The notes: generated by a model not told the origin, from the sequence alone. Positions 1,494-46,542 are shown, counted from the stretch's first letter. The stretch is 64,000 nucleotides of DNA from an uncultured Ignavibacteria bacterium (GCA_964537215.1 CAZIBI010000006.1:55221-119220), one strand, 5' to 3'. Numbers and translations are program-made.

Positions 1494-1519
1494 TCGTAGG
1501 TCGGGTTTTTCGCTTCAAG
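1494..1519 (+). repeat. Left arm of a split GTAG-type REP hairpin
   Basis: tcgtaggtcgggtttttcgcttcaag is 24/26 identical to the reverse complement of 3563-3588. It ends in cgcttcaag, which is repeated directly at 3561-3569. Confidence 0.75.
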
Positions 1520-3356
1520 TCAGTTTGGTTAACATATCATGAATCCATTTCAGCGTGAGGCTACAAGATTCTCGACTCTCCTCTGAGAATGAATGTTCCC
1601 GGCGATTTATCAGACATTCCTGAATTGACCTTGCAAAGAGGTCCTTCCTGTTCTTTTGTGCGTTCGGATAGCAGCTTTTTTGTATAACCAGACGATCATC
1701 ATCGGTAATGATTCGATCGAGGGTCTTTTTCGCAAGTGACTGTGCAACGTCACCGAGCGTGAAAACGCGGTCATGTAGGATGCTACCGAATACGTCAAGA
1801 TACCTCTTCTTCTGTCTGGCCCCTTCTCTATCTCCATCAAGCAGAATAATGAATGGCTTTCCCCAGGCGAGGTAAATCTTTATGACTGTGTCAAGTGATC
1901 CAGCACCAGTTCCGGGCAAGACTGATGACTCCGGACCCAATCTTTGATTCATCAAGTATTTTAGGACATAGAAATCATTTTTGCCTTCGACCATTACCAG
2001 TCTCGGAACGGGCTCAAGAAGGCTTGGTTGGTAGTCCAGAACATCTAAGATAGGTTGAAAATAAGTAAACTGGTCAGGATGCTTTACGGCAAACTCACGA
2101 TATCTGCTCGTTTGAATCTGCGTTTGTGAGCTGTTGTACGAATCCTCCGGCGCATCATAACTCAAACCTGCATTTCGAACGACATAGGTTCCCTCCAACC
2201 ACTCAGGGTTAATGAGATGATGACTATGCGTAGTATAGATTACGGTACACGTTTTGGCGAGGACGCCTAGACTTTTCAGAAGCTTCTGCTGCGCTGTTTG
2301 GTGGAGGTTAGACGCTGGCTCATCAAACAGAAAGAGAACTCTTTTGGACGATTGATCGTTCCGGTATCTTCTATAATGCGTAAGTAGGAAGAAGACAAAG
2401 AACCATCTAAATCCGAGTGATCTCTCCTTAATCCTATATGATTGATCTGCCTCCTTTATTTTGAATTCAACGTAGAGCTTGGGCTTGCATCCTGCAGGTT
2501 GGTCTTCTGCGTCACAAGCTATTGAAATCTCCTTGTCCTTGATCTCTCGAGAAAATATCCTGTTCCATTCAGCGAATACGACTCTTGACACGTCGCGGGA
2601 CATCTTATTTAGTAGCGCTTCGAGGCTTCTTTTGTCCTGCTTATCTGTACTCGTCGCCCGGTCTAGTAAATGAGTCTTGAAATCCAGTGATTGGTCCACT
2701 GACTTCAATATGTCCTCGAGTACTTGTCTATAGAACTGATGCTTTTTGTCATCAGTACCATAATTCTCAAGGTAGATCTTATCTGGAAAATCGAACAAGA
2801 AATTCTGAAAGTACAATATCTCAGGAATGAGATTTCGAAGTTCACCTGTGAACAGATCAATTTCTTCTTTTGCTAACTGAGAAAGGCTGATCGGGCTCTT
2901 TCTTCGCCCTCGTCTAAAACTCGCATCAATTTGGAATGTGGAACCAGTTTTTAAGTATTTCGAGTTCTTGTACCTGCGAAACTGTTTGATCTTTAGTTCT
3001 TGCCCTAAGGACTCGACGATCAAGCCAAGAGATTTTGTCATTACCTCTTTCATCTTGGCAACGTCAGCAGCATCGAGCAAGAGTTCGACATCGAGCACTA
3101 TGTCATCATTAAAATTGTGCCGCAGGTTTATTGGAATGAGCTCATGTTCATCCTCGATGGTTCTGCCAGGCAACTCTAATAGGTCTAAATCGCCTGCTTT
3201 GAATGAAAAGGCGTTTATCGCGTCTAGAATCGTCGTCTTGCCACTTTCATTAAGCCCAACAAGTGTAAAAACATCTTGAGAGGGAGATCGCCCCAAATCC
3301 ATGGATGCGTATTCAATTCCCTTGAAGTTAGTTATCTCAAATTTCGTATATCGCAT
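1515..3356 (-). CDS. OLD-family ATP-dependent nuclease (ABC/AAA ATPase + TOPRIM), probable anti-phage factor
   Basis: Walker A GLNESGKT, signature-like RSLGFRWF, Walker B LFDEPASNLH, H-loop TTHS, TOPRIM motifs VEGKND and LDGD. GC about 37-45% in hand-counted lines versus about 60% in a glyQS line. Confidence 0.85.
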   Translation of the reverse strand: MRYTKFEITNFKGIEYASMDLGRSPSQDVFTLVGLNESGKTTILDAINAFSFKAGDLDLLELPGRTIEDEHELIPINLRHNFNDDIVLDVELLLDAADVAKMKEVMTKSLGLIVESLGQELKIKQFRRYKNSKYLKTGSTFQIDASFRRGRRKSPISLSQLAKEEIDLFTGELRNLIPEILYFQNFLFDFPDKIYLENYGTDDKKHQFYRQVLEDILKSVDQSLDFKTHLLDRATSTDKQDKRSLEALLNKMSRDVSRVVFAEWNRIFSREIKDKEISIACDAEDQPAGCKPKLYVEFKIKEADQSYRIKERSLGFRWFFVFFLLTHYRRYRNDQSSKRVLFLFDEPASNLHQTAQQKLLKSLGVLAKTCTVIYTTHSHHLINPEWLEGTYVVRNAGLSYDAPEDSYNSSQTQIQTSRYREFAVKHPDQFTYFQPILDVLDYQPSLLEPVPRLVMVEGKNDFYVLKYLMNQRLGPESSVLPGTGAGSLDTVIKIYLAWGKPFIILLDGDREGARQKKRYLDVFGSILHDRVFTLGDVAQSLAKKTLDRIITDDDRLVIQKSCYPNAQKNRKDLFARSIQECLINRREHSFSEESRESCSLTLKWIHDMLTKLT

Positions 3357-3512
3357 GCTCCTCAGACCGCCTTTACGTGAGTTCGTTCAAGAAAATATAA
3401 TAGACCCGTTCGCAATAGCACAAGGAGTTTCGAATTGTAAACTGGCAGATCGCCTCCCCACCATTAAGCCAGCGCAGGACGAAACGCTAAACTCGATAAT
3501 CCTATTTATCAG

Positions 3513-3588
3513 TTCGTAGGTCGTATTCCGAGCGTTTCTGACATTCCCGCATTCGGATTCCGCTTCAAGCGAGAAACCCGACCTACGA
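3513..3588. repeat. GTAG-type REP element with terminal inverted repeat tcgtaggtcg/cgacctacga
   Basis: 10-bp terminal inverted repeat. Contains cgcttcaag and the right arm aaacccgacctacga. Confidence 0.65.
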
Positions 3589-4158
3589 CTTCCGCCCCCG
3601 CATCGCCATCAACGCAAGACTCCCATTGAGCAAAAAAATGTAGGCTGCGAAACTGGTACTCTCAAAGCTGTGGGTTTGAACTGACAGGAGACTAATCCCA
3701 AAACCGATTGCACTGATACCATACCCAATCCAACTCTCGGACTGCGGATGTCGATACGCTTTGATCAGCGTCGGTATCGCTGCGAGAATATCCGCCAGAA
3801 GCGAAAACAGCAGCGCCAAATTCGGATTGTCGGTAATCGCCCAGAGGATGATCCCAATGACGGCCGCCGCCATCAGGTAGTAGTCGCGCGGATCACTTTT
3901 CCAATACGCTTTCTCATTGAAGAACGATGCCGCGACTATCAGCAGCGGCATAAGTCCGGCAACGAACGAAGTCCACGATATGCTCGCAACGCCCTGCGCC
4001 CTTTGCGCTACAAAAATGACCAGCGGGAAAATGCCCCACAACAACCACGTGATGCGGTTTGGTTGGGCTTTGCCGACGATGGTATCGAACAGGTAATACA
4101 ATCCGCCGACCGAGCCGATCACGGCACCGACAATCGCGCAATACTCTGGTAGCATACG
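3583..4158 (-). CDS. Polytopic membrane protein of unknown function (PQ-loop-like pattern)
   Basis: About 6-7 hydrophobic segments, with PNRITWLLW and AAIPTLIKAYRHPQSE motifs. ATG near 4158 preferred over the ORF-track start at 4176. Confidence 0.6.
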   Translation of the reverse strand, partial: RMLPEYCAIVGAVIGSVGGLYYLFDTIVGKAQPNRITWLLWGIFPLVIFVAQRAQGVASISWTSFVAGLMPLLIVAASFFNEKAYWKSDPRDYYLMAAAVIGIILWAITDNPNLALLFSLLADILAAIPTLIKAYRHPQSESWIGYGISAIGFGISLLSVQTHSFESTSFAAYIFLLNGSLALMAMRGRKS

Positions 4159-4249
4159 CCAATCACCGCAAACCAATCTGAAGTGTCAAGAACTTCGTCT
4201 GCGGACCGGGTTTCTATCGAACTTGCCGGACCTCGTCCAGTCGCGCCCC

Positions 4250-4720
4250 TTACTGTGCCCGCAACTTTGCCAACACCTTGCCTTCACCGTTGAACAGTCT
4301 CAACTCGTCGCCGTTGACTTGAAATCTCATCGTTGCGTCAAGTGCATTCAGGAAAACTTGCTCATACGCCGGTTCCGTCAAACAAGCCATCTTGGTCGTC
4401 ACCAGATGCGCAAACACCAAAGTGTCCGCGCTCATCATGTAGATTCCCATCAAACGATTACAGCCGGTACTTCCGGTGACGCTGCTGTCGCTCGCTGCGA
4501 GCACGAATTGCATCGCCTTGCTGCTTGTATCCGGTGCGATAGCTGTTCCCCCGACTTCAAACACGGCCCAGGTTCTGTCGAGAATTGCCCCGCCCGTTTG
4601 TTCGGACTTTTGGCTCTCCAGCGCCGGTGTCTGCTTCTCGCTTGTCTCGCCCTTCTTTTGACATCCAACACCAACAAAGACCAAGACCGCTGCCACCGTG
4701 CCGACAACAATTTGCTTCAT
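4250..4720 (-). CDS. META domain (HslJ-like) lipoprotein
   Basis: Lipobox VGVGC and the META pattern GSTGCNRLMG...TTKMAC. Confidence 0.85.
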   Translation of the reverse strand: MKQIVVGTVAAVLVFVGVGCQKKGETSEKQTPALESQKSEQTGGAILDRTWAVFEVGGTAIAPDTSSKAMQFVLAASDSSVTGSTGCNRLMGIYMMSADTLVFAHLVTTKMACLTEPAYEQVFLNALDATMRFQVNGDELRLFNGEGKVLAKLRAQ

Positions 4721-4829
4721 GCTTTCCCTCCCTGAAGATTCATTTTGTGCTTGAGCCCAATTGACTCACACTTTGAGCCGTAACACAATAGAATACGCAG
4801 AGACTCTAATTGCAAATCAGGAGGAATTA

Positions 4830-5258
4830 ATGATTCGTAAAGCATCCGCCATCTGGAAAGGCGATCTCAAATCCGGCAAGGGCACACTTGCAACTGAAAC
4901 CGGAGTGCTCAAAGACACCCAGTATTCATTCGCTTCGCGCTTCGAAACCGGCACCGGCACCAACCCCGAAGAACTTATCGGTGCGGCACATGCCGGTTGC
5001 TTTTCGATGGCGCTTTCCGGCGGCTTGACAGCGGCGGGATTTGTCCCGGATCAAATCACCACCACCGCCAACGTCCACATTGATAAGGTCGCGACCGGCT
5101 TCAAGGTCACGTTGATCGAACTCTCCACTGAAGCTCGCGTGCCGAATATCGACGACGCCAAATTTCAGGAAATCGCCGCCGGCACCAAAACCGGCTGCCC
5201 GATTTCGCAGGCGCTTGCCGCCACCGAAATCAAACTCACGGCCAAGCTGCTCAAGTAG
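4830..5258 (+). CDS. osmC: OsmC family peroxiredoxin
   Basis: MIRKASAIWKG start, GTNPEELIGAAHAGCFSMAL and the second Cys in GCPIS. RBS GAGGA before ATG 4830. Confidence 0.92.
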   Translation: MIRKASAIWKGDLKSGKGTLATETGVLKDTQYSFASRFETGTGTNPEELIGAAHAGCFSMALSGGLTAAGFVPDQITTTANVHIDKVATGFKVTLIELSTEARVPNIDDAKFQEIAAGTKTGCPISQALAATEIKLTAKLLK

Positions 5259-5278
5259 CAGTCTGCACAAACGATGCT

Positions 5279-5319
5279 GGTCGGGTTTGATTCCTGCTTT
5301 GAGCGCAGCAGACCCGACC
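5279..5319. repeat. REP-like hairpin or terminator after osmC
   Basis: ggtcgggttt...agacccgacc arms resemble those at 1494 and 3563. Confidence 0.5.
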
Positions 5320-5501
5320 TCGCCCCCACTACTCCATATTAATACTTGACATCCTTGACGAATTTCTTAGCTTGAAAACAGCGCGGGGCAGCCGCGACTT
5401 AACAACTACGTCAATCCATACGTCATAGAGGCTTTTCTAACATCTTTCTTCGCTAACGTTTTAGACCAAACTCTATCGAAGTCCACTTATTGGGAGGATG
5501 T

Positions 5502-7001
5502 ATGTCTAAACGTGACCCCAATCGTAGTCACATCCGCGCATTCGCTTCGGCGCGAATAATAGTCGCGCTATTACTTACTACATTTATTTCTGGCATTGCC
5601 CTCGCGGCGCAACCGTCGATTTCGATCGAACGCCCGCGGGACGTGATACAAGGATCCTTCGAGTATGTCGATGTCAAATACGAAGCCAACAGTTCAAGTC
5701 TGCAATTTGCCGGATTTGACCTCTTGATATCTTATGACGCAGCTGCCTTGACCCTGATTGATGCCACACAGGGAAATCTCCTGAACGACTGCGGCTGGCA
5801 GTACTTCACCTACCGCGTCGGCAACGACGCTTGCACGGGCAGTTGTCCTTCCAGCGTTGTTCGCATCGTTGCTCTTGGCGATAGTCCGCAGGTATCCGGG
5901 CAGCAATCGTGCAATCTCGGCGCGTCGTCTGGAAACCTCGCGACCATTAAGTTCCTCGTCACTAATGATGCCAGCTTTGAATGCATAACCGTACCCGTTC
6001 AATTCTATTGGTCCGATTGCGGCGACAATGTATTAAGCAGCGTAACCGGCAATACTCTGTTCGTCGCCGATACTGTATATTACGGATTCGCATCCGACCT
6101 GATTTACCCAGTTCCGAACGGACTGCAAACCAATCAAGGTTGGCCCGAATCCTGTGCTTCCGAGCTGGGAAACAACCAGGCAAATCGCGCTGTCAACTTC
6201 CGCGAGGGCGGTGTCAGCATCGTGTGTCCTGAGCCTATCGACTATCGCGGCGATATCAACCTCAACGCGCTTGCCTATGAAGTCGCCGATGCAATTCTCT
6301 TCTCCGACTACTTTTTCGCTGGACTAGCGGCATTCACGACAGACGTCAACGCCCAGGTCGACGCCACCGACGTCAACGCCAACGGCCTGCCGCTGGAATT
6401 TCGCGACCTAATATATCTCCTCCGAATCATTCTCGGCGACGCTCTGCCGTTCCCCAAGGCTCCCGCGGTCGATACCTTGACGGCTGTCTTTACCCAGAAT
6501 ACTCTTTCTAAATTTGTGCGCGTAGAATCGCCGCACCTGCTGGCTGGCGCAATTCTCGATTTTGACGGCCAAATCACCCCCGACTACTTGCCCGCCGCGC
6601 CCGATAATTTCTTCCAAGAATCGATGAACCTTGCCGGCGGAACCCGGATACTTGTCGCAAGCGGCCAACCGGGCCAGGCTACAAACGGGATCTGGTTCAG
6701 CTATACCGGCGATGCCGCCCTCGTTTCGGTGACGACGACAGATTTCGCGGACTCTCCAATTGACGCCCAGATTGCTTTTGAAACCGCCCCGGCTAACTGC
6801 GGCGACGTCAACAACGATAGACATACCAACATCAGTGACGCAGTCTCCCTGATCAACTACATCTTCGATGTCTTTCCGTCGCAGATCGATCCATACGCCT
6901 CGGATGTTGATTGCGACCGGATGATTTCGATTTCTGATGCGGTCTTACTGGTGAATTACATTTTCGCGGGCGGTACAGCGCCCTGCGCGGCCTGCAACTA
7001 A
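5502..7001 (+). CDS. Secreted cohesin-like + two dockerin-like domain protein
   Basis: Signal peptide. Cohesin-type strand pattern GFDLLISYDAAALTL. Internal dockerin-like pair GDINLN...AD / DVNANG...RDLIYLLR. C-terminal dockerin CGDVNND..ISDAVSLINYIF / DVDCD..ISDAVLLVNYIF. RBS GGAGG before ATG 5502. Confidence 0.8.
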   Translation: MSKRDPNRSHIRAFASARIIVALLLTTFISGIALAAQPSISIERPRDVIQGSFEYVDVKYEANSSSLQFAGFDLLISYDAAALTLIDATQGNLLNDCGWQYFTYRVGNDACTGSCPSSVVRIVALGDSPQVSGQQSCNLGASSGNLATIKFLVTNDASFECITVPVQFYWSDCGDNVLSSVTGNTLFVADTVYYGFASDLIYPVPNGLQTNQGWPESCASELGNNQANRAVNFREGGVSIVCPEPIDYRGDINLNALAYEVADAILFSDYFFAGLAAFTTDVNAQVDATDVNANGLPLEFRDLIYLLRIILGDALPFPKAPAVDTLTAVFTQNTLSKFVRVESPHLLAGAILDFDGQITPDYLPAAPDNFFQESMNLAGGTRILVASGQPGQATNGIWFSYTGDAALVSVTTTDFADSPIDAQIAFETAPANCGDVNNDRHTNISDAVSLINYIFDVFPSQIDPYASDVDCDRMISISDAVLLVNYIFAGGTAPCAACN

Positions 7002-7044
7002 ACATTGTTAGCAGCAACGACTTAACACGATTCGCCGAGGTATC

Positions 7045-7971
7045 ATGCCCAAGCTTTCAATCTCCTGCAGCTGTGTGCACAATTTTCTAATCAGTGCCTT
7101 CGTGTGCACAGTGGTTGTTTGCTCTTTCGCATCGACAACGACGCTTGCTTACGAGCCAAAAGTTTTCATTGAATACGCCGGAAACGCCTCCACCGGTAGC
7201 CGGGAATCTATCAGGGTCTTTTTCGACCCTAACCGTTCTGGATTCAGGGCCGCCGCTTTCGAACTCATGATCAGCTACGATGCGACCGTACTCGAAATCG
7301 ATACTGTGATGCCGGGACAATTGCTTACCAGTTGCCATTGGGATTTCTTCGTCTATCAGACCGGCGCCGCAACCCCTTGCGGCACCGGCTGCCCGGAGGG
7401 GGTTATTCGTATCGTTGGGATGTCTTGGAATCCGCCCTCTTGCTATCTCGGAGATACTGGACCGGGAGCGATCGCCGTCATGAAGTTTACTTTTATCGGC
7501 AACATCGGGAACGGCTGTAAGTCGTTTCCAATTCGTTTTTTCTGGAGCAAGTGTTCAGATAACACTTTTGTTGGGGGCACCGGTTATCCCGTTTATACCG
7601 CTGATAGCGTCTTCTGGAGTGACCAACCCAATCACTATTACCCGATTCCTGCCGGACTCTACACAAACGAAGGAATGCCCCCCTCTTGCTATGTGTCCGA
7701 TCCACATCGCATGATTACCTTCCGCGAGGGCGCAGTAGTGACCGCCTGTCCCCTCCCATCCCCAATCTGCGGAGATACTAATTTTGATCAGGTCATCAAC
7801 ATGGGGGATGCCGTCGCGTTGGTGAATCACATCTTTTTGCATATGCCGCTGCCATGGGGTGCGTCATCTGGTGACATGAACTGCGACTTTGCCAGGACCC
7901 TTGCCGACGTTGTGTATCTGGTCAACTACATCTTCAATAAAGGACCGGCTCCCTGCGCCGGCTGTAAGTGA
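7045..7971 (+). CDS. Secreted cohesin-like + one dockerin domain protein
   Basis: Signal peptide, AFELMISYDATVLEI cohesin pattern, and C-terminal CGDTNFDQVINMGDAVALVNHIF / GDMNCD..LADVVYLVNYIF. Confidence 0.8.
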   Translation: MPKLSISCSCVHNFLISAFVCTVVVCSFASTTTLAYEPKVFIEYAGNASTGSRESIRVFFDPNRSGFRAAAFELMISYDATVLEIDTVMPGQLLTSCHWDFFVYQTGAATPCGTGCPEGVIRIVGMSWNPPSCYLGDTGPGAIAVMKFTFIGNIGNGCKSFPIRFFWSKCSDNTFVGGTGYPVYTADSVFWSDQPNHYYPIPAGLYTNEGMPPSCYVSDPHRMITFREGAVVTACPLPSPICGDTNFDQVINMGDAVALVNHIFLHMPLPWGASSGDMNCDFARTLADVVYLVNYIFNKGPAPCAGCK

Positions 7972-7985
7972 GAATCTGCGCCCTA

Positions 7986-8546
7986 TTAGGGAGCGAGTCG
8001 CATTCCGTTGCTGCTATGATCAATTAACTTTTCCAGCCGCTTCTGCCGCGTCTCTTCCTTCTTCGCGCTCATTACCCAGAAACTCGCGACTCGCTGGTAC
8101 CACGGCGCTTGCGCGCTGAAAAATTCCCACGCCTTTTTGTTCTTGCGCAATATCTTTTCGTAAGCATCATCAAGCTTGCGCGGTTTCTGCTCGTAAGAGT
8201 AATCCCGCCGCTTGCTGGAGCTGCGCTCAAACGCCGTCGCGCCGCAAGGCATCACCAGTCCGAGTTGCTTAAGTTCACCATATCGCTCGATATTGACCTT
8301 GCTCCAATTGCTCGTTGCCCTGCGCGGCGTGAAACGAATCTTGTAACTTGAGCTGTCTATACTTTTGCGCACTCCATCAATCCAACCGAAACACAACGCC
8401 TCATCCACCGATTCCTTCCAACTGATACTCGGCTGTCCCGAGCTGACTTTGTAGAAACCCACCCACAGCTCGTCAACATGGGAATGATTGGCCCTCAGCC
8501 AGCGCCGAAACTCCGCCTGGGTTTTGAAGAACTTGATTTCTGGCAT
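7986..8546 (-). CDS. YdeI/OmpD-associated family protein
   Basis: FRRWLRANH, EALCFGWIDG, RFTPRR..SNWS and C-terminal KKEETRQKRL motifs. Confidence 0.88.
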   Translation of the reverse strand: MPEIKFFKTQAEFRRWLRANHSHVDELWVGFYKVSSGQPSISWKESVDEALCFGWIDGVRKSIDSSSYKIRFTPRRATSNWSKVNIERYGELKQLGLVMPCGATAFERSSSKRRDYSYEQKPRKLDDAYEKILRKNKKAWEFFSAQAPWYQRVASFWVMSAKKEETRQKRLEKLIDHSSNGMRLAP

Positions 8547-8602
8547 TACTCGAACAAGCTCCCAATTTCGAAAGCTCCTGTCAAGTCATCGATACAATAT
8601 TC

Positions 8603-8631
8603 TTGACAATTACTAACTGACTGACTATCAT
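8603..8631 (+). promoter_or_regulatory. Sigma70-type promoter of the third cohesin-dockerin gene
   Basis: TTGACA (8603-8608), 17-nt spacer, TATCAT (8626-8631). Confidence 0.65.
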
Positions 8632-8740
8632 GGTTGAGTAACTCAAGTATTCATCAACTTCTCTTTCATAGGAATCTAACCGCCTCATTCTGCTATCGGA
8701 CAGTTGTCTTCGATTCCTGACTAAAACCAGAGGAGGTTGT

Positions 8741-10237
8741 ATGTCTGTTCCTGTCTTCTTACCGCGCATTCTGACAAATAAGCGCGTCGCCGCATTGGCA
8801 TTGCTCGCCGTTGCTCTCTTATTCTTTCCATCGACTTCGTTCTCCGCTACCACCATTACAATTCCAAGAACGCACAATACGCAGCTCGGTGATACTGTCC
8901 TAATGCCCGTTCAGCTCGATCGCAACGAGCCAGGGCCTGAATTTAGCTCATTCAAGTTACGAATACATTACACCGCATTTCTCGTCGACTTGATCTCTGT
9001 GGAGCCCGGCGATATGCTCTCTGGCTGCGGCTGGGAGCAATTCGAATACCAGCTCGGCTCGCTAAACGCCGACAGCATCGGTACAATCACCATCTCCGCT
9101 GTCGCCAACGTCGCAGGCATTCCCGGCGCGCCCAGCTGCTATCTTGGCCCCGCACTCGGATCAATTGTCAATCTCAAGTTCCATGTCCCCAATGACGAAT
9201 CAAACGAGTGCCAGACTGCATTTGTTAATTTCTATTGGCTCAACTGCAACGATAACGCCTTTGCCACGATAGCCGGTGATTCACTATATGTCGCAGGCGA
9301 CGTCTATGAGTGGGACTGGATACTGCCTGTGCCGGCTGCACTCTCAACTTACGCCGGGCTGCCCAACTCCTGCCTGTCCGGCCCCATCGACGGCAGGACT
9401 CCGCACCGGGCAATTACCTACAAACAAGGATTCATCGACATTACTTGCGGGCCTGATCCCACTGCTCATGGCGACCTCAATTTGAACGGAATCGGATACG
9501 AAATTGCCGATGCGGTTCTTTATGTTGAATACTTTCTGAACGGACCGTCCGTATTTAGCTCCGATCCTATCATTCGCGCCAACCAAATAATCGCCAGCGA
9601 TGCGAACGCTGATGTCGAGACTCTTACCTTCCGCGACTTGACTTATCTCCTGCGTGTGATTGTCGGAGACGCTCTCCCATTTCCCAAACCGTCCGCTTCC
9701 GAGTCTCTTGAAGCAACATTCACGCAAGACTTTGCTGCCAAGACGATCACTGTGACTTTCGCTGGGGACCTCTCCGGAGCATATTTTGAGTTTACCGGCG
9801 ACATTGTTCCAACATTCAATCCGGCGGCCCCTTCGGGCTTTGCACGTTACTATGCATTTGACGGTGTGAAGACGCATGTGATAAGCGTGTCGGAAACTCC
9901 AAACCCGACGCCTGGCCCGCTCTGGTTCTCCTACACAGGCGATGGCGTTCTTTCTTTCGTAGGAACGGCCGACTACCATGACAACCTAATCATTGCCAAC
10001 GTAGTTTATCTGAACCCGCCGTCCGCAGAGTGCGGTGATGTCAACTATGACCAGATGACTAACATCAGCGACGCGGTTTACCTAATCAGCTATATCTTCG
10101 TCGGTGGCCCGCCCCCGGTGGATTTGGCCGACGGCGATGTCGACTGTAATGGCTTAGTGACCGTCTCCGATGCCGTCTTCCTGATCAACTACATCTTCGC
10201 CGGCGGAAGCGCGCCCTGCGCAAACTGCCCGCAATAA
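8741..10237 (+). CDS. Secreted cohesin-like + two dockerin-like domain protein (paralogue of 5502..7001)
   Basis: Same architecture as the first paralogue, with shared GDxNLN...YE(V/I)ADA, FRDL.YLLR.I.GDALPFPK and C-terminal ISDAV dockerin. RBS GGAGG. Confidence 0.82.
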   Translation: MSVPVFLPRILTNKRVAALALLAVALLFFPSTSFSATTITIPRTHNTQLGDTVLMPVQLDRNEPGPEFSSFKLRIHYTAFLVDLISVEPGDMLSGCGWEQFEYQLGSLNADSIGTITISAVANVAGIPGAPSCYLGPALGSIVNLKFHVPNDESNECQTAFVNFYWLNCNDNAFATIAGDSLYVAGDVYEWDWILPVPAALSTYAGLPNSCLSGPIDGRTPHRAITYKQGFIDITCGPDPTAHGDLNLNGIGYEIADAVLYVEYFLNGPSVFSSDPIIRANQIIASDANADVETLTFRDLTYLLRVIVGDALPFPKPSASESLEATFTQDFAAKTITVTFAGDLSGAYFEFTGDIVPTFNPAAPSGFARYYAFDGVKTHVISVSETPNPTPGPLWFSYTGDGVLSFVGTADYHDNLIIANVVYLNPPSAECGDVNYDQMTNISDAVYLISYIFVGGPPPVDLADGDVDCNGLVTVSDAVFLINYIFAGGSAPCANCPQ

Positions 10238-10248
10238 TCTCGCTCGCA

Positions 10249-10282
10249 AATTCAGTCCGGAGGAGATCCTCCGGACTGAATT
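10249..10282. terminator. Perfect 15-bp hairpin after the cohesin-dockerin gene
   Basis: aattcagtccggagg-agat-cctccggactgaatt, 11 nt after the stop. The U-tract is weak. Confidence 0.55.
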
Positions 10283-10462
10283 CGCTTCTTCAACCATCAC
10301 TGACATTTTAGTCACTTCCCGGCAACCCTCTACTGCATTGCAACCGAAGAGCTTATGTTTTTGTGTTGGCATTGTCGATACACTTAGTATATATTTAGTC
10401 AACCTAATCAGAATCTAACATCCTTAACAGTATAGCCCACATTCAATGTGGAGGAGTGCTCT

Positions 10463-12427
10463 ATGCGCCGCATAACTATTGGGGCCGGTCTATTCGCAGC
10501 TATCTTGCTCGTCGCTGTAACTACGGCTTTTGCTGTGGTTCCCAGCAAAGTCTCGGTCCAGGGCCGCTTGACAGATTCGGCCGGCTCTCCCGTGCCCGAC
10601 GGCAGCTACATGATTACTTTCACCTTGTGGGACGCCCCAATTGGCGGCGCAATGGTGGCGAGTGAAATCCAAAACGTGACCGTGACCGACGGTTTGTTTT
10701 CTGCCAACCTTGAATACGACGGCGAAAAGTTCGCCGGCGGCTCGTCGCGCTATCTCCAGTATCAGATTCAGGGTGACCCGCCGATAACCCCGCGCGTTCT
10801 CATGACCTCTTCCCCTTACTCGTTGATTAGCTCTCGAGTCAGCGGCGATATCGAGACCTCCGCGGGCGAGCTAAAACTAAGACGTGGCTCGGTATCGGCG
10901 TCGAATTTTCGTATCGTCGGCGATGACGACGGCGATCTCTTCAACGTGGAAGCAAAACCCGACAGCACCAAAATTAGAATCATTCGTCATTCCTCCGGCG
11001 ACCCGGACTTTGACCTGCTCCGCATTGTTGGCGGATCTTCAAACAGCGGCGGTACACAAGCCGACGGCGCAATGATCGCCATCACCGGCGATCCCGACTT
11101 TGATTTGCTTCGCGTCACTGCCGGCAAAGACAGTGCCAAAATTCGCATCAGCGCCCAAAGCAGCGGCGACCCCGACTTTGACTTATTGCGCATCAGCGGT
11201 GGCGGCGGCCCCAGTTCCGGCGGCGCCGAGATGTCGATGGGCGGCGACCCCGACTTTGATTTGCTGCGCGTCTCCGCGGACAAAGATAGCGCCAAGATTC
11301 GCATCAGCGGCCAGAGCAGCGGCGACCCCGATTTTGACCTCTTGCGTATCGTCGGTGGAGTCGGATCCAGTTCGAGCGGTGCGAGTATGACAATCACCGG
11401 CGATCCCGATTTCGATCTCTTGAGAATCAGCGCCGATGCCGACAGTGCCAAGATCCGCATGAGCGGGCAAATTTCCGGCGACCCGGACTTTGATCTGCTT
11501 CGCATCGTCGGCGGATCGGGATCATCTCATCTCTCCATGCAGAGCGAACCCAGCGGCGCAGCCTCGATTTCGCATGCGATGGATGTCTCATGCGATAACA
11601 ACGGCGCCGATCTTCGGTTGCGTGTCGTTCCGAGTGCGCAAACAGTCGGCACTACGCATATGCACGTCGACGATCATAGCGCGTCATTGAGAGTAGCCAC
11701 TGGCGATGTCACCGGCGATGGCATCGAACTTAGCGCAGACAACACAGGTAAATATCTCGTTGTCGGATCGACCCACTATCTCGACGGGACACGTTCCAGC
11801 GACGACGAGGTCGTCAAGACCTTTAGTTGGAAGCAACTCGGCGGGCCGCCTGTGACCCGGATGCAAATGCGCGCCGATAGCCTCGGTAGTTCAACGATGT
11901 GTCGAGGTCTGCGCGGCTATGACGTAATTTTGTTATCTGACCAAAACGGCGCCAAGATGCAGCTGGAAGACTCCGCTAACAACGTCATGATGGAAATGCT
12001 CGGCGAAGGCCGTCTCGGTGTCGGCAAACCGGCTGATAATGTCAAACGTATTGATGTCCTCGGCGGCGCATTTTGCAACGGCACAAACTGGGTCAACGCG
12101 TCTGATGTCAATTCCAAAGAGAATTTCCGGCCCATCGACGCGCAGGAACTTCTCAATAAGTTGGCCCAGCTCGAGATTACCGAGTGGAACTACCGCGGCG
12201 AGGGCGAAAACGCTCGCCACATCGGTCCGACCGCGCAGGATTTCTACAAGCTATTTGGAATTGGAAATGACGACAAGTCGATATCGACCATTGATCCTGC
12301 CGGCATTTCACTGGTCGCAATCAAAGAGCTGTACAAGAAGAGCAAGGAAGTCGACCAACTCAAGCAGCAAGTCGACGATTTGTCAAAGCAGTTACTCGAG
12401 ATTCGCGAGCAGTTGAAGCACAAGTAA
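10463..12427 (+). CDS. Secreted fibre protein with C-terminal peptidase S74 intramolecular chaperone domain
   Basis: Signal peptide, N-terminal QGRLTD..PVPDG module, internal GDPDFDLLR repeats, C-terminal SDVNSKEN...HIGPTAQDF and a terminal coiled coil. RBS GGAGGAG before ATG 10463. Confidence 0.8.
   Translation: MRRITIGAGLFAAILLVAVTTAFAVVPSKVSVQGRLTDSAGSPVPDGSYMITFTLWDAPIGGAMVASEIQNVTVTDGLFSANLEYDGEKFAGGSSRYLQYQIQGDPPITPRVLMTSSPYSLISSRVSGDIETSAGELKLRRGSVSASNFRIVGDDDGDLFNVEAKPDSTKIRIIRHSSGDPDFDLLRIVGGSSNSGGTQADGAMIAITGDPDFDLLRVTAGKDSAKIRISAQSSGDPDFDLLRISGGGGPSSGGAEMSMGGDPDFDLLRVSADKDSAKIRISGQSSGDPDFDLLRIVGGVGSSSSGASMTITGDPDFDLLRISADADSAKIRMSGQISGDPDFDLLRIVGGSGSSHLSMQSEPSGAASISHAMDVSCDNNGADLRLRVVPSAQTVGTTHMHVDDHSASLRVATGDVTGDGIELSADNTGKYLVVGSTHYLDGTRSSDDEVVKTFSWKQLGGPPVTRMQMRADSLGSSTMCRGLRGYDVILLSDQNGAKMQLEDSANNVMMEMLGEGRLGVGKPADNVKRIDVLGGAFCNGTNWVNASDVNSKENFRPIDAQELLNKLAQLEITEWNYRGEGENARHIGPTAQDFYKLFGIGNDDKSISTIDPAGISLVAIKELYKKSKEVDQLKQQVDDLSKQLLEIREQLKHK
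10919..11554 (+). repeat. Intragenic tandem repeat with 78-nt (26-aa) period; 7 GDPDFDLLR copies plus 1 degenerate
   Basis: Motif starts at 10919 (degenerate), 10997, 11087, 11165, 11243, 11321, 11399 and 11477. Spacing is 78 nt except one of 90 nt. The end coordinate is approximate. Confidence 0.9.
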
Positions 12428-12432
12428 ACGAC

Positions 12433-12462
12433 CCGGCACTTGGTGACACGTTACCAGGTGCC
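12433..12462. terminator. Hairpin between convergent S74 and META genes
   Basis: cggcacttggtgac / gttaccaggtgccg imperfect stem overlapping the META stop. Boundaries approximate. Confidence 0.4.
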
Positions 12463-12993
12463 GTCGTCCGACGCTACAAAACTCGCTACCAGTTCCGCAC
12501 CGGTGGACAATTCGAGCGTGTTTCCGGTAATTGTGTAGTTGGTCACCCGTGCCAACGCCGCGATGATCTCGCTTTCGAGTTCCATCATGCCGTCGCAGTA
12601 CATTCGGGTTGCACCAATCTGTCCGAAGCGAAGTGTACCGTCCTCGATTTCGTAGCTGCTCATGATATTGTTGCAGCCTGTAAATCCGACCAGCCGCCTC
12701 CCTTCCGGAATCATCCGGATACTCATCGGCCGCGCCGCCGGGTCAATCAACAGTGGCTGCCCGTTTACGCCGGTCAGCAGCCACGTCGTCTCCTCTAAAG
12801 CATAGAGCGGTGTAAATCCCTGGCCGCTTTGGCTGGGTTCATACAGCACATCCTCGCCCGTTTCGACCGAATCACTCGCGACTGCAACCGGCTCGCTCGA
12901 ACCCTGCGACACCGTGCGCGTGTAACCGCCGCAACCGCTGATGATCGCCGTCAGCGTCATGTATGCAAACCATCGAATCATCAATTTCATCAT
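12451..12993 (-). CDS. META domain lipoprotein
   Basis: Lipobox ISGC and META pattern GFTGCNNIMSSY...GATRMYC. Confidence 0.85.
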   Translation of the reverse strand: MMKLMIRWFAYMTLTAIISGCGGYTRTVSQGSSEPVAVASDSVETGEDVLYEPSQSGQGFTPLYALEETTWLLTGVNGQPLLIDPAARPMSIRMIPEGRRLVGFTGCNNIMSSYEIEDGTLRFGQIGATRMYCDGMMELESEIIAALARVTNYTITGNTLELSTGAELVASFVASDDGTW

Positions 12994-13142
12994 TTGCCTC
13001 CAGCTACTGTTACATGTAACATACGTCGTCGCTCCTCGACAAGCAAGCGTCGCTGCTAATTGGACACGTCGCTGCGGCTGAAACCTTCGCTGTTGCCGCG
13101 CGTATTAGTAAGCTGTTACATAATTTTTGAAAGGACATTCCC

Positions 13143-14189
13143 ATGCATACAAGCTCCCGGTTTTACCGCCGGACCATTCCGGCCGCCCTATTGCTGTCGC
13201 TCGGCGCTTTTGGTTCTCTGCTGGCGCAGGAAGACACCACCATCACTGCCACCGAGCAGATCACTCTTGACGCGACCGCCATGATGCCGCTCGTCAAATC
13301 CGACTTCGCCAAACAGTTCCTTCTCTCGATGACCGAATTGCCCAAGATCGAAGGCAAACGCTTGGTTTATCGCAACCGCCAAACCCGCGAGGCTATGACT
13401 GCCGCCGAGTTCAAAGCCTCCGGCCTCGATACAACGTCCGGTTTTACGCCGCGCGAATATGGCGAGGATTTCTACTACTTCACCGGCTACGGCACTCCCG
13501 TTGCCGTAGTACGAGCTTACGATCTCATCGGTCAAGCCGGATTCAAATCCGCCGATGGCGCTAAGATCATCGACTTCGGCTTCGGCTCAATCGGCCAACT
13601 GCGTGGACTCGCTTCGCTCGGCGCCGATGTCACCGGCATTGAAGTCGAACCTGCGTTCCGAGCCCTCTACTCCGAGCCCACCGACACCGGTAAAATTGCT
13701 CGCGGCAAGACCGGCGGCAAAGGCGCAGCCGGACATCTCCGCGCGCTCTACGGATTCTTCCCCACCGACTCCTTGATCAACAAACAACTCGGCAGCGGTT
13801 ACGATCTCTTCTTTTCGAAGAATACGCTCAAGAACGGCTACGTTCATCCCGAGCGCGAGGTCGATCCCAAAATGCTCGTACATCTCGGCGTCGATGATTC
13901 AACTTATGTGAAGCGCGTGTATGACCTGCTCAAACCCGGCGGCTTCTTTATGATCTACAACCTGCATCCGAAATACACCGGCCCGGAAGTCGAAAAATAC
14001 ATCCCCTGGTCCGATGGCCGCTCTCCCTTTAAGAAGGACCTATTTGAAAAGATCGGGTTTGAAGTCATCGCGTTCGATGTCGTCGACACGCCGTTCGCCC
14101 ACACAATGGCAAAGGCCCTCGGTTGGGACAAAGACATGGATCTCGAAAACGATTTGTTCGGAATGTACACTCTGGCGCGGAAGAAATAA
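13143..14189 (+). CDS. Signal-peptide-bearing protein with class I SAM-methyltransferase-like motifs
   Basis: IIDFGFGS (motif I), VTGIEVE (motif II), YDLFFSKN and VYDLLKPGGFF. N-terminal Sec-like signal ending SLLA-Q. Confidence 0.6.
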   Translation: MHTSSRFYRRTIPAALLLSLGAFGSLLAQEDTTITATEQITLDATAMMPLVKSDFAKQFLLSMTELPKIEGKRLVYRNRQTREAMTAAEFKASGLDTTSGFTPREYGEDFYYFTGYGTPVAVVRAYDLIGQAGFKSADGAKIIDFGFGSIGQLRGLASLGADVTGIEVEPAFRALYSEPTDTGKIARGKTGGKGAAGHLRALYGFFPTDSLINKQLGSGYDLFFSKNTLKNGYVHPEREVDPKMLVHLGVDDSTYVKRVYDLLKPGGFFMIYNLHPKYTGPEVEKYIPWSDGRSPFKKDLFEKIGFEVIAFDVVDTPFAHTMAKALGWDKDMDLENDLFGMYTLARKK

Positions 14190-14195
14190 GCAGCC

Positions 14196-17069
14196 CTACT
14201 CGACTGACCCGAGATACCGATCCAGCCACGCGAGCGTTTCTTTGATATGCTCCGCCCGCGGCACGGAATGGCCAAGCGGGAAAGTAATGCGCTTCTTGTG
14301 TTCAGCCGGTGTTCCCAGCAAGTCGAACATCGGTTTTTGCGAAGTCTCGACCGGAAAGTAGAAATCGTGTTCGCCGTTGAGCATTAGCGTCGGTTGCGTC
14401 ACTCGCGACACGTAGTTAAGTTGGTCCGCTTCCGGCAACGCGCGCTGGAAAGTCAAACCCGCGACATACAGCACGACGGCTTTGATTCTCTTCTCCACGG
14501 CCGGCATGATCGCGCCCATCGCGCCGCCCCAACTTACTCCGTAATATGCAATCTTGTCCGCATCAATATCCGCGCGCGTTTCGAGATAATCGATCGACCG
14601 CCCGAGATCCTTGCCCCACATCAATACATGGTCGCGGTAGAACGCCGTTTCTTCGGGATAGTCCGATTTTAGGTCGTCGCCGCGCTGGTAAGTGCCTTTG
14701 TAGATCGGCAGCAGCAGTGCCCGTCCACTCTTGAGAATAAAATCGGTGCGCCGCAACTCCATCGAGCCGACTGCCGCCGCGTGAATCGCGAGCGACCCGG
14801 GAAAAAGAACCACCGTCTGCAGCGGCCGGCGACACTTTGGCGGCAAATAAAGATAGGCAATCATCTGCTCGCCGCCGTAAGCTGCGGCAAATCGAATCGT
14901 CTGCCGAATCCCGTAATGCGCCTGTTCTTCGGTTTCGATTACGGCATTCAATGGCGTGCGGTCGTAATGGAACTGACGTAAAAAGAAACTGAAGATTTCA
15001 TCCGAAACGGGCGTCTCCTTTCGGAAATCGCGGAACGGCAGTTCAATACTGCGATGCAAGTTTGCGCTGTTCGGTTCCTCGCCCAGTGTTTTGATGCAGC
15101 GGAATCCATTTGTCCCCGAACGGTCGAACGCCGACTGCGCGTACGCATCCGTAAACGCATACTCAGGATCATTGTAGCCGCCGCCAAGAATAAACCGCTC
15201 GCCGCGTCGGTTGCATTCATTCCACGCCCACTCGCGCACATTGCCGGCCAGATCATGTATACCGAATCTGTTCATGCTCGCCGTTTTTCCGATCGGAAAA
15301 ATTTCCTTACCGCCAAAATTTGCCGCAGGGATTATCGCCGAACTCGCCACCGTAAATGCCGCCCAATTCCAATGGTAAATCGTCGGCAACTGTTTGCCCA
15401 CCCAGGCTGCATAAGCCGCCGCCTCAAACCAGCTAACGCCCGTCACCGGCTTCTCGTCGTCGCCGTGCGGATATTCACCCATCTCCCAACCTGCCGGTCC
15501 CGGTTGTCCGAGCGTGTCGACGAATCGCGCCATCGCGGCGCTGCGATCAAGTTCACCGTCGCTGGTGATAAACGGATTCTGCCAGTACTGAGGATACGTG
15601 TACCCGCCCGCATCGACAAACGCTTTGTACATTCGATTAGTGACCGGATTCCGGTCCATCAAGTATGCCGCCGTCGACTCTGCTCCCAGATGATCCAGCC
15701 CAGGCATGAACAGCGGGAATTTTCCTGCCGGGATACGCTCCATGTCTTCCGGAATTGTGCCCTGCTCACTTAGTTCATAATGCCAAAGCGGCACACTCGG
15801 GTCGGTTGCGCCCAATGATCCGGCTTCGAAGAGCCAAAGCAAGTCGTTCATCGTGCGGTAGCCCGGCGATTCCATCCGCAAATGTGTGACTCCGCGCGGG
15901 TAGCGTAAATCGGTCAATGGTGTCTTGCCTAGATATATTGGCCCGCCTGCCTTGCTGTAATGCTGCACGTACACATCCGCCCCCGGTACACTCGATGTAA
16001 TAGAAATCCGCCGCGCAAACTCCGGCCACAACTGCTCCAATTTTGCATCACACGGATCAAACCTCTCAATCTGCCGTGCCAATTCAAATGCCTGCCACGC
16101 TTCCGGACCTTCATCGAGCGCTTGAATTCTCTCAATCGTCCGCATCAATTCCGGCAATGCTTCGTCGCGAACCCAATTTGAGAGCCGGTTCAGTTCCGCT
16201 CCAAGTTCAGCCACCGTCTGATATCGCCCATCAGGATTCTGCTTCAAGCAGCGTCTGATAACTTTCGCCAGCGGTGCCGGTGCTGCCGCTTCCAAGTCAG
16301 CCGTCTTTTCGGGTCCCGCATGCAAAATGAGACTCATTACTGCCGCACTGCTCGGACCGTCGAACAACCGTCTTCCCGTCGCCATTTCAAACAGCACGCA
16401 GCCAAGCGCGAAAATGTCGGTCCGCGCATCAATCTCTTTGCCTTCTAACTGTTCCGGCGACATGTACTGGATCGTTCCGACAATCGCCCCCAACGTCGTC
16501 AGCGGCATCGCCGCAGTCTTTGACTGATCCGGCAGCACTTGTTTGTCGGTGATCCCGGCCGGACGCGCCAACCCGAAATCCAGAAGCTTGATCCCCGAAT
16601 CGGCAATCATCACATTGCCCGGTTTCAGATCGCGATGAATGATTCCCGCCTCATGGGCGCGTTCCAACGCTTCCGTTATCTCGCGGCCGATTGTCAGCAG
16701 TTGCTTGACGGAAAGCGGCCCACGTGCCAATAGCGCGCCAAGAGTCTCCCCTTCAATGAATTCCAGTACCAGAAAATTAACGCCGTTCTCGACTCCGACA
16801 TCATGAAGCGTGCAAATATTCGGGTGATTGAGCTGTGAAATCGTGCGCGCTTCCCGTTCAAATCGCGCCCGCACATCGCTGGACGCCGACATATGCGACG
16901 GCAACACCTTGATTGCAACATCGCGCCCGAGGCGCGAATCCACAGCGCGATACACTTCGCCCATTCCGCCGGAGCCGATCTTGGCGACAATCTGGTAATG
17001 TCCGAAGGTCGTTCCCGGAGCCAAATGGACAACGCCTTTGCTCGTCTGATCGAATTGTTCTTCGCTCAA
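14196..17069 (-). CDS. Ser/Thr protein kinase fused to PEGA-like, FGE/SUMF1-like and alpha/beta-hydrolase domains
   Basis: Kinase GSGGMGEVY, HRDLKPGN, DFG. FGE-like PVTGVSWFEAAAYA, DLAGNVREW, GFRC. Hydrolase GVSWG, NGEHD, GHS. TTG start. Confidence 0.88.
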   Translation of the reverse strand: MSEEQFDQTSKGVVHLAPGTTFGHYQIVAKIGSGGMGEVYRAVDSRLGRDVAIKVLPSHMSASSDVRARFEREARTISQLNHPNICTLHDVGVENGVNFLVLEFIEGETLGALLARGPLSVKQLLTIGREITEALERAHEAGIIHRDLKPGNVMIADSGIKLLDFGLARPAGITDKQVLPDQSKTAAMPLTTLGAIVGTIQYMSPEQLEGKEIDARTDIFALGCVLFEMATGRRLFDGPSSAAVMSLILHAGPEKTADLEAAAPAPLAKVIRRCLKQNPDGRYQTVAELGAELNRLSNWVRDEALPELMRTIERIQALDEGPEAWQAFELARQIERFDPCDAKLEQLWPEFARRISITSSVPGADVYVQHYSKAGGPIYLGKTPLTDLRYPRGVTHLRMESPGYRTMNDLLWLFEAGSLGATDPSVPLWHYELSEQGTIPEDMERIPAGKFPLFMPGLDHLGAESTAAYLMDRNPVTNRMYKAFVDAGGYTYPQYWQNPFITSDGELDRSAAMARFVDTLGQPGPAGWEMGEYPHGDDEKPVTGVSWFEAAAYAAWVGKQLPTIYHWNWAAFTVASSAIIPAANFGGKEIFPIGKTASMNRFGIHDLAGNVREWAWNECNRRGERFILGGGYNDPEYAFTDAYAQSAFDRSGTNGFRCIKTLGEEPNSANLHRSIELPFRDFRKETPVSDEIFSFFLRQFHYDRTPLNAVIETEEQAHYGIRQTIRFAAAYGGEQMIAYLYLPPKCRRPLQTVVLFPGSLAIHAAAVGSMELRRTDFILKSGRALLLPIYKGTYQRGDDLKSDYPEETAFYRDHVLMWGKDLGRSIDYLETRADIDADKIAYYGVSWGGAMGAIMPAVEKRIKAVVLYVAGLTFQRALPEADQLNYVSRVTQPTLMLNGEHDFYFPVETSQKPMFDLLGTPAEHKKRITFPLGHSVPRAEHIKETLAWLDRYLGSVE

Positions 17070-17364
17070 TCTCTGTTTGCCTCAATTATCGATTTCAAGG
17101 GTTGATTCAATCTATCTTCTGGAATATAACGAAGCCGGCTCAATACAGCAGTAAGAAATTCGCTGAAATACCTAACCTAACATCACCAAATATCAGACAA
17201 TTCTTGGTTGATTTCCTCCAAAATTGCACCGCTCGACAATTAGCTTTTTATTGGATATTGTGGCTCGTCAAAGTATACTTTGCGCGTCCACGACTCAACC
17301 CTAGTTTAGCACTGGTTTCCGCAGTCAATTCGTTGTGACCGCAAGCTATGCATATGGAGCAGCA

Positions 17365-19887: not shown

Positions 19888-19896
19888 TCTCACCCA

Positions 19897-19945
19897 AAAA
19901 ATGCAGCGGCCGGGTTCGGCTTTTTGCCGCAAACCCGACCGGCTT
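19897..19945. terminator. Probable bidirectional terminator
   Basis: A-tract followed by gccgggtt...aacccgaccggc stem between convergent genes. Confidence 0.45.
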
Positions 19946-19979
19946 ATCGAACAATGCTTGCCGCCTTGTGACGGCAACC

Positions 19980-20540: not shown

Positions 20541-20884
20541 ATCATTCTCCTATTCTTTGGAGTCTGCCTGCGATTGTCCGTTCGCAGGCGAGTACAATTC
20601 TGTCGTCACGATGTGCCGACAAGGTACTTCTTTGATCCGCAACGCGGATCCATAACCCAACGGGTGAATGAAAGGAACTTGTAGTTTCTGACTGGCCAGA
20701 GGCGCTTCCTGTTTGAAATCGCCCTAAGGGAAAGACTACCTCTTACACAATCGTCGCCGGCAAAGGTTTGCTCTATCTGCAGAAAGTCGCGCTGCGCGCA
20801 ATAAATATGGACCTATCTTGTTGCAACTGAAGCGGGTGGGACTAACGATATCGTCGCGATTTTTTTGTGCGATATCCCGAACTC

Positions 20885-46523: not shown

Positions 46524-46542
46524 CGCGACCCTCCGAAGCAGG

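Follow-up and report, generated by a model that had tools for sequence, protein, structure and literature searches.

The 64-kb stretch of an uncultured bacterial genome examined here (GCA_964537215.1, CAZIBI010000006.1:55221-119220; called the window below) covers only part of the genome of its host and carries three genes, pA, pB and pC, whose products combine one cohesin domain with one or two dockerin-like modules and may act as connectors of a cell surface protein network. A first-pass annotation of this DNA had proposed three secreted paralogues, each with an N-terminal cohesin-like domain, two of them (pA and pC) with two dockerin-like modules and one (pB) with a single module. The three open reading frames (ORFs) were recovered on the plus strand, all with signal-peptide-like N-termini, as follows:

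5502-7001, plus strand: pA, 499 amino acids; signal peptide, cohesin, DocM, X and DocC (ORF call and domain evidence)
5502-5606, plus strand: pA signal-peptide-like N-terminus, residues 1-35, predicted cleavage between ALA and AQ; recognized by hydropathy, charge and cleavage motif, and a lone helix (residues 8-35) in the structural model
7045-7971, plus strand: pB, 308 amino acids; signal peptide, cohesin and DocC, without DocM and X
8741-10237, plus strand: pC, 498 amino acids; signal peptide, cohesin, DocM, X and DocC

DocC and DocM designate two dockerin classes and X a beta-sandwich module; cohesin (Coh), DocM and X make up what we call the Coh-DocM-X cassette. pB and pC are paralogues of pA (38-41% identity), pB having the architecture of the other two minus an internal block of ~190 residues that contains DocM and X. 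Hidden Markov models (HMMs) specific to the family confirmed the homology of the modules across the three proteins, and when the whole window was scanned with them, cohesin, DocM, X and DocC were confined to pA, pB and pC. The ATG at 5502 yields an 'MSKR' start that is common to orthologues. Chance ORFs were rejected, given E-values down to 1e-195 against orthologues, and so were pseudogenes, on account of the intact reading frames and of a 99%-identical copy that stands for a cluster of 18 sequences.

The cohesin domains occupy the following positions:

5613-6236, plus strand: pA cohesin, residues 38-245, eight cysteines; top 44 Foldseek matches all cohesins; Pfam 21.0 bits
7162-7749, plus strand: pB cohesin, residues 40-235; family cohesin HMM E = 8e-65; Pfam 12.2 bits
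8855-9451, plus strand: pC cohesin, residues 39-237; family cohesin HMM E = 1.6e-65; Pfam 19.5 bits

With these scores none of the three reaches the gathering threshold of Pfam PF00963 (24.1 bits), and some other members of the family pass it in precomputed Pfam annotation. We modeled pA with AlphaFold2 from 121 homologues (mean predicted local distance difference test [pLDDT] of 87.1). The model runs from an N-terminal helix (residues 8-35) through a first beta-sandwich (39-240), a set of three helices (261-311) and another beta-sandwich (326-427) to three final helices (444-489). In a Foldseek comparison of this model with the PDB, all 44 matches at E <= 0.001 were cohesins; type I cohesins gave template modeling (TM) scores, TM(target), of 0.70-0.80, and the non-cellulosomal cohesin 2xdh of A. 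fulgidus was among the matches. The top 30 PDB matches of a second model, restricted to residues 36-322 (pLDDT 92.8), were again all cohesins, with a TM of at most 0.82 and a probability of 1.00. The cohesin-like nature of the N-terminal domain is thus borne out by fold for pA and by the family HMM for pB and pC (E ~1e-65), in spite of the subthreshold Pfam scores, and pA is modeled with the nine-stranded jelly-roll of cohesins, in a version ~60 residues longer than the canonical one.

Co-variation was analyzed by mean-field direct coupling analysis (DCA) of 353 cassette units (effective number ~303, 397 columns). The cohesin cysteine pairs 161-242, 97-137 and 111-115 co-vary strongly (ranks 2, 20 and 21), and Cys 173 and Cys 218 are invariant. 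Because these four conserved or co-varying pairs imply disulfides, the cohesin probably holds four of them and the protein is predicted to be extracytoplasmic.

The dockerin modules and X are located as follows:

6795-6998, plus strand: pA DocC, residues 432-499, four cysteines, ending in APCAAC; Pfam Dockerin_1 37.6 bits; dockerin 2mte matched at TM 0.79
7768-7968, plus strand: pB DocC, residues 242-308; family DocC HMM E = 5e-30; Pfam 17.1 bits
10028-10234, plus strand: pC DocC, residues 430-498; Pfam Dockerin_1 31.6 bits; family HMM E = 2e-32
6243-6461, plus strand: pA DocM, residues 248-320, loops D251 to D263 and D290 to D302; DocC HMM E = 3.5e-7; 5m2o_B matched at TM 0.74
9467-9688, plus strand: pC DocM, residues 243-316; DocM HMM E = 1.7e-33; DocC HMM E = 1.3e-5
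6462-6791, plus strand: pA X, residues 321-430, a beta-sandwich of ~110 amino acids and seven strands, pLDDT ~90; family HMM E = 3e-41
9695-10015, plus strand: pC X, residues 319-425; family HMM E = 4e-32

Judged by its sequence, DocC is a bona fide type-I-like dockerin. The gathering score of PF00404 (22.9 bits) is passed in pA and pC; pB DocC falls below it and has both D-x-N/D-x-D...D calcium loops intact. The calcium ligands of pA DocC are D435/N437/D439/D446 and D468/D470/D472/D479, a pattern repeated in pB and pC. Both loops have the canonical 12 residues and are each followed by a helix (444-455 and 477-489 in the pA model), and alignment reveals an internal symmetry, with two near-identical helices 'ISDAVxLINYIF', in line with the duplicated 22-residue segment that defines type I dockerins. 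Four cysteines are conserved in a motif that starts with CGD, contains DVDCD in loop 2 and ends in APCxxC. The match to 2mte came from the same Foldseek search of the pA model that retrieved the cohesins.

DocM went undetected by Pfam in both pA and pC. It is matched over its full length by the DocC HMM, the family profile hits PDB dockerins weakly at this place (E = 0.03-0.12), and its helical part in the model of residues 36-322 superposes on 5m2o_B with a root mean square deviation of 2.2 A. Its acidic ligand, in both loops, lies at position 13 rather than 12, and its two helices are dissimilar, unlike those of the symmetric DocC. DocM is also the most conserved part of the family (D251, N253, D263, N292 and D302 are invariant in 121 sequences). 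It starts ~8 residues after the last cysteine of the cohesin and nearly always stands directly after that domain and before X, with which it shows some weak co-variation (pairs 300-348, 300-417 and 304-349); the fold of X is assigned to no named family. We consider DocM a homologous but atypical and diverged dockerin on the grounds of HMM match and model, so that the earlier count of two dockerin-like modules in pA and pC and one in pB can stand with this qualification.

The N-termini of all three proteins have a charged start, a hydrophobic core of 15 residues and small-residue cleavage motifs near residue 35. A hydropathy scan revealed no further membrane-like segment in pA-pC, which are all acidic and are predicted to be secreted via Sec. 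Pfam and NCBIfam showed no catalytic domain in them, in agreement with the first-pass annotation; NCBIfam assigned no family at all, and no carbohydrate-binding module (CBM) was found by Pfam. Lipobox, S-layer homology (SLH) and sortase motifs were likewise absent, as was the sorting domain of the type IX secretion system (T9SS; PF18962), which was sought in pA-pC with Pfam at E <= 1 and with a sorting-domain HMM derived from the family. The latter matched in the window only the PorU-like and PorZ-like ORFs described below. Three candidate identities were rejected: T9SS cargo (no sorting domain), lipoproteins (no lipobox) and parts of a cellulosome (no CBM, and no carbohydrate-active enzyme [CAZyme] among ten DocC cargo proteins sampled from related loci).

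An exhaustive HMMER search with the Coh-DocM combination retrieved 1,602 clusters (50% identity) at E <= 1e-3, of which 704 were at E <= 1e-30. GTDB representative genomes contributed at least 473 loci, for the most part from Zixibacteria, with Calditrichota and GN15 as further sources. Full-length homologues of pA, of ~500 amino acids, are a minority; most matches are proteins of ~850 amino acids that come from Zixibacteria and Calditrichota and combine He_PIG or FlgD-Ig domains with a T9SS sorting domain. Some proteins hold two to six tandem cassette units. Architectures were counted in 81 related loci that we fetched, where 71 of the ~97 cassette-bearing ORFs have a T9SS sorting domain and 19 combine the cassette with DocC:

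Coh-DocM-X-sorting domain (850 to >3,400 amino acids): 70 ORFs
Coh-DocM-X-DocC: 15 ORFs
Coh-Coh-DocM-X-DocC: 3 ORFs
Larger mixed forms: 2 ORFs
DocC only: 40 ORFs

In giant adhesin-like proteins, which also have He_PIG and cadherin-like domains, the cassette is the part nearest the cell. Throughout the family DocM is near-invariant, while DocC is variable and interchangeable with the T9SS sorting domain, and in pA-pC it sits exactly where most relatives carry their T9SS anchor. By this comparison of architectures, pA-pC are a dockerin-ended offshoot of a very large family of T9SS surface proteins in which the T9SS anchor has been replaced by DocC. Both types coexist in single assemblies, since CAZLBP01 and QQUK01 each encode DocC-ended and T9SS-ended cassette proteins.

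The proteins that bear DocC without a cassette were read from the fetched loci, as a profile search with the DocC alignment gave almost only fragments of 57-126 amino acids, uninformative on cargo. Ten of them were scanned with Pfam and turned out to be peptidases (C10, C1, M12, M28 and S8), LVIVD, FG-GAP and PQQ propellers and beta-helix proteins; no cellulase was among these ten. One gene order, a conserved operon, recurs in seven Zixibacteria-like loci (L022, L038, L047, L052, L060, L066 and L077; ~7-17 kb in each): a small DocC protein of ~370-410 amino acids with no other Pfam domain, then two Coh-DocM-X-sorting-domain proteins and, at the end, a sorting-domain protein of ~850-950 amino acids with a weak internal dockerin match. 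Two other loci (L050 at 3010-9992 and L074 at 6490-14010) encode giant T9SS proteins of 1,819 and 1,998 amino acids, one of them with beta-helix/NosD repeats, in which a canonical Pfam cohesin immediately precedes the sorting domain; each of these genes is followed by two small DocC genes (~240-260 amino acids). This is a second way, simpler than the first, in which these lineages pair cohesin and dockerin genes.

Two genes of the window connect its host to the same secretion system:

46500-49202, plus strand: PorU-like C25 peptidase with T9SS sorting domain; Pfam Peptidase_C25, FlgD_ig and Por_Secre_tail; sorting-domain HMM E = 4e-29
53284-55482, minus strand: PorZ-like T9SS component, a beta-propeller; Pfam PorZ_N_b_propeller and Reg_prop

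PorU-like and PorZ-like proteins are core parts of the T9SS attachment complex, and the presence of their genes in the window identifies the host as a diderm that has type IX secretion; the diderm envelope assumed in the first-pass annotation is thereby supported. The glycyl-tRNA synthetase (GlyRS) encoded at the start of the window matches proteins named 'candidate division Zixibacteria' with identities of up to 85%, and the host is a Zixibacterium.

Because DocC occupies the position of the T9SS anchor, and because the same dockerin class tags secreted enzymes, we favor, at about even odds, the explanation that pA-pC are Sec-exported, non-catalytic connectors, comparable to adaptor scaffoldins, of a non-cellulosomal, T9SS-anchored surface network. 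Like adaptor scaffoldins, they are non-catalytic and contain at least one cohesin together with a dockerin. After export, the protein would be held non-covalently, through its DocC, by a cohesin that belongs either to a T9SS-anchored member of the family or to another paralogue, and its own cohesin would then offer a further docking site for DocC-tagged cargo. In this way pA-pC would serve a protease-rich network as extenders or as the equivalent of monovalent adaptor scaffoldins, with DocM-X most likely being a fixed structural or oligomerization part of the cassette rather than another free valence on a par with DocC. The first-pass annotation had seen no obvious anchor, which is literally true of pA-pC for all the motifs sought above; DocC, placed where most relatives carry their T9SS anchor, is however likely to be a non-covalent one. 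Plausibly, pA-pC belong, as the first-pass annotation had it, to a modular envelope system, one whose free dockerins and cohesins would recruit other partners. Related genomes carry DocC on peptidases and propellers and cohesins on T9SS-anchored proteins. The non-cellulosomal character proposed in the annotation is in keeping with the lack of CBMs in pA-pC and of cellulases among the ten DocC cargo proteins.

Several points weigh against the connector interpretation. A cohesin fold alone, here taken from models, is no proof of dockerin binding, and the insertions of ~60 residues in the cohesin could cover the usual binding face. The absence of a T9SS sorting domain leaves the crossing of the outer membrane by pA-pC unexplained. 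The 64 kb of the window contain no T9SS-anchored cassette protein and no DocC cargo, the presumed partners coming from related genomes, and the occurrence of DocC genes near cassette genes is a raw observation from the fetched loci.

DCA recovered the disulfides and the strand pairings and put only two inter-domain pairs among its top 100, which link I49 and S52 of the cohesin (beta1-beta2 loop) to N283 in the inter-helix linker of DocM. The signal is weak, and it involves a loop at the C-terminal end of the cohesin, outside the sheet (8-3-6-5) on which cohesins canonically bind dockerins in a calcium-dependent way. Since DocM is a distinct class with extreme conservation, stands in cis beside the cohesin and takes part in the only inter-domain co-variation, it most likely provides no additional free valence of the kind that DocC does. 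One could go further and regard Coh-DocM-X as a rigid, intramolecularly packed stalk or spacer without any free valence, with a cohesin-like domain that has a ligand other than a dockerin or a structural function only; pA-pC would then be DocC-tagged cargo on another type of cohesin. Such an arrangement would agree with the co-variation just described, with a short Coh-DocM linker that was modeled with fair confidence (pLDDT 71-84), with the cell-proximal location of the cassette in giant adhesin-like proteins, and with the distinct canonical cohesins found next to T9SS sorting domains in these lineages. The predicted TM score (pTM) of 0.76 for the Coh-DocM construct, versus 0.51 for full-length pA, is compatible with joint movement of the two domains yet ambiguous, as a floating DocM should give ~0.68 and a rigid one ~0.9. 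The co-variation amounts to two pairs at an effective sequence number of ~300; moreover, pB has kept its cohesin without DocM-X, so the cohesin is retained by itself, and DocM shows no variation at its calcium ligands, which is the pattern of functional dockerins. On balance, a stalk or spacer without any free valence appears unlikely to us.

We assign a similarly low probability to the possibility that Coh-DocM-X is a head-to-tail polymerization unit, with the cohesin of one chain binding DocM of the next, that cross-links T9SS-anchored surface proteins of Zixibacteria and relatives into an S-layer-like 'LEGO' coat, and that pA-pC are soluble extender, brancher or capping units of this coat that also recruit DocC-tagged peptidases. 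This would be a T9SS-anchored version of what the first-pass annotation had in mind. A homotypic interaction of this kind may be kept alive by the fact that cohesin strands and DocM are highly conserved and that tandem [Coh-DocM-X]n proteins exist.

Quite doubtful is the scheme of the first-pass annotation itself, in which pA and pC are AB2 monomers and pB an AB monomer, the cohesin of one copy binding DocM and/or DocC of others to build a calcium-dependent, branched, self-assembling mesh or coat. pA and pC do have one cohesin and two modules of dockerin fold, proteins with two to six tandem Coh-DocM units exist in nature, and the joint conservation of cohesin strands and DocM is what a homotypic pair would be expected to show. 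T9SS cargo can form surface layers in other bacteria, as is the case of TfsA and TfsB in Tannerella. In classical systems, however, the dockerin of a chain usually does not bind the cohesin of that same chain. The AB2 premise of two equivalent free dockerins is weakened above all by the differences of DocM and DocC in loop length, symmetry and conservation, by the near-constant position of DocM directly after the cohesin and together with X, as if fixed in the cassette, and by the I49/S52-N283 co-variation, which points to packing in cis and not to binding at the cohesin face. The best experimental precedent for self-assembly is Amy4 of the R. bromii amylosome, in which the dockerin recognizes the cohesin of the same protein and autoaggregation results (PMC4611034). 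Amy4 resembles pA-pC in having cohesin and dockerin on a single chain and differs in being a GH13 enzyme of a Gram-positive host, with one dockerin and without DocM-X. Finally, we hold it very unlikely that DocC proteins hitch-hike, binding in the periplasm to the cohesin of a family member with a sorting domain and passing as its passengers through the T9SS translocon: T9SS cargo does reach its folded state in the periplasm, ahead of translocation, Sec signals without a sorting domain are common to pA-pC and the DocC-tagged peptidases, and the presumed cohesin partners of these proteins are T9SS cargo, but the idea is purely inferential and no precedent for T9SS hitch-hiking was found in the literature searched.

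The connector interpretation has its closest parallels in the adaptor scaffoldins, such as R. flavefaciens ScaA and those of A. cellulolyticus and C. clariflavum (PMC4959524, PMC3821032), which are non-catalytic, secreted, made of one or more cohesins with a C-terminal dockerin, and bridge an anchored cohesin and dockerin-tagged cargo. By comparison, pA-pC have a single cohesin and no CBM and, in pA and pC, an atypical dockerin and a beta-sandwich before the C-terminal dockerin. Their host is a diderm Zixibacterium, their presumed anchors are T9SS cargo instead of SLH or sortase proteins, and their presumed cargo is peptidases and propellers instead of CAZymes. A cellulosome-like system with a T9SS-anchored cohesin scaffoldin and dockerin-tagged peptidases has been proposed in silico for Ca. 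Stygibacter (Cloacimonadota) (PMC8542988). It shares with ours the FCB superphylum, a T9SS C-terminal domain on the cohesin protein, C-terminal dockerins on peptidases (S8 and C25) and a non-cellulolytic character; it relies on one scaffoldin of 3,755 amino acids with tandem cohesins and CBMs, whereas here there are hundreds of Coh-DocM-X proteins and a subclass with the sorting domain swapped for a dockerin. In anaerobic methanotrophic (ANME) archaea, non-cellulosomal proteins combine one dockerin with up to five cohesins (PMC9012536). These archaeal proteins, along with that of A. fulgidus (2xdh), are enzyme free, come from a non-cellulolytic context and have been proposed as cell surface organizers, as we suggest for pA-pC, although they belong to another domain of life, with an S-layer in place of an outer membrane and T9SS, and lack the Coh-DocM-X cassette. 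DocM-X is also reminiscent of the XDoc dyads of type II and III dockerins, with an asymmetric dockerin adjacent to a beta-sandwich; the order is reversed (dockerin before X), and a kinship of X to known X modules is at most putative.

The presence of cohesin and dockerin on one protein is therefore not new in itself and has precedents in adaptor scaffoldins, Amy4 and the ANME proteins. In the searchable literature we found no description of the Coh-DocM-X cassette, its wide distribution in Zixibacteria and relatives, a dockerin with 13-residue loops or the exchange of sorting domain and dockerin, and nothing relevant that pairs dockerins with Zixibacteria or Latescibacteria. The type of system is already known from Amy4, Cloacimonadota and ANME; the family and its architecture appear to be undescribed.

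The locus itself is variable among relatives, which keep its neighbors (OsmC, OmdA, META, kinases and urocanase) and have different numbers of cassette genes at the syntenic position: one each in L082 and L083 and at least three in the close relative GCA_964267595.1 (L001). The GlyRS of the latter is 96.4% identical to that of the window. Its positional orthologues are 51% identical to pA and 71-73% identical to pC, and with pA diverged to this extent in a genome with a 96% identical GlyRS, the family evolves very fast. The DocM-X-DocC half of pA (6243-6998 in the window) is 77% identical to a separate, cohesin-less L001 protein of 287 amino acids (10001-10864), while the cohesin half is only ~51% identical to the positional orthologue, so that pA is a mosaic, which suggests that modules are exchanged between paralogues. 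Fast evolution, mosaicism and variable copy number, as read from these alignments, are typical of exposed surface proteins. In L001 the pC orthologue is broken into two overlapping ORFs of 305 and 193 amino acids (18001-19490), representing a frameshift, a pseudogene or an assembly error.

Between pB and pC, on the opposite strand, lies a gene for an OmdA/YdeI-like protein. A promoter-like site was located upstream of pC (8603-8631), in promoter and terminator scans that performed no better than on shuffled sequence. Genes for META-domain lipoprotein-like products flank the cohesin-dockerin cluster on both sides (4250-4720 and 12451-12993, both minus strand), and the pairing of META and OmdA recurs in relatives. 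Directly downstream of pC (10448-12427, plus strand), a signal-peptide protein of 659 amino acids has tandem repeats of 156 bp that encode 'GDPDFDLLR(I/V)' units, a C-terminal Peptidase_S74 intramolecular-chaperone domain (E = 3.5e-11) and a coiled-coil tail. Its N terminus faintly resembles the Bdellovibrio mosaic adhesive trimer family, and the whole has the appearance of a trimeric fiber or adhesin that cleaves itself. At 1515-3356 (minus strand), an AAA_15 ATPase of 612 amino acids, with best matches to PADLOC AriA (E = 4e-28) and Old, is found in the stretch of the window with the lowest GC content (0.458 at 2001-4000). The equivalent interval of L001 holds other genes, including a DocM-X-DocC protein and an LVIVD-DocC protein; the region is a candidate defense-gene insertion. 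Three large Ser/Thr protein kinase genes follow in a row at 14196-23206, one fused to PEGA, FGE-sulfatase-like and alpha/beta-hydrolase domains and two to tetratricopeptide repeat arrays. The window also includes a dcw (division and cell wall) gene cluster.

In Gram-positive bacteria, cellulosomes are classically built from cohesin-dockerin pairs, which synthetic biology also employs widely. Here, a whole candidate phylum of diderms has equipped hundreds of T9SS surface proteins, at their base, with a cohesin and an atypical dockerin in cis, and the lineages with this family tag peptidases, not cellulases, with matching C-terminal dockerins, the covalent T9SS anchor being swappable for a dockerin. 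If the predicted pairings are true, they would provide new orthogonal, disulfide-stabilized cohesin-dockerin pairs for protein engineering and a second, structurally distinct class of dockerin with 13-residue loops, paired with a beta-sandwich. For the organisms themselves, uncultured bacteria of sediment and groundwater, they would mean that extracellular proteolysis is anchored by a new logic.

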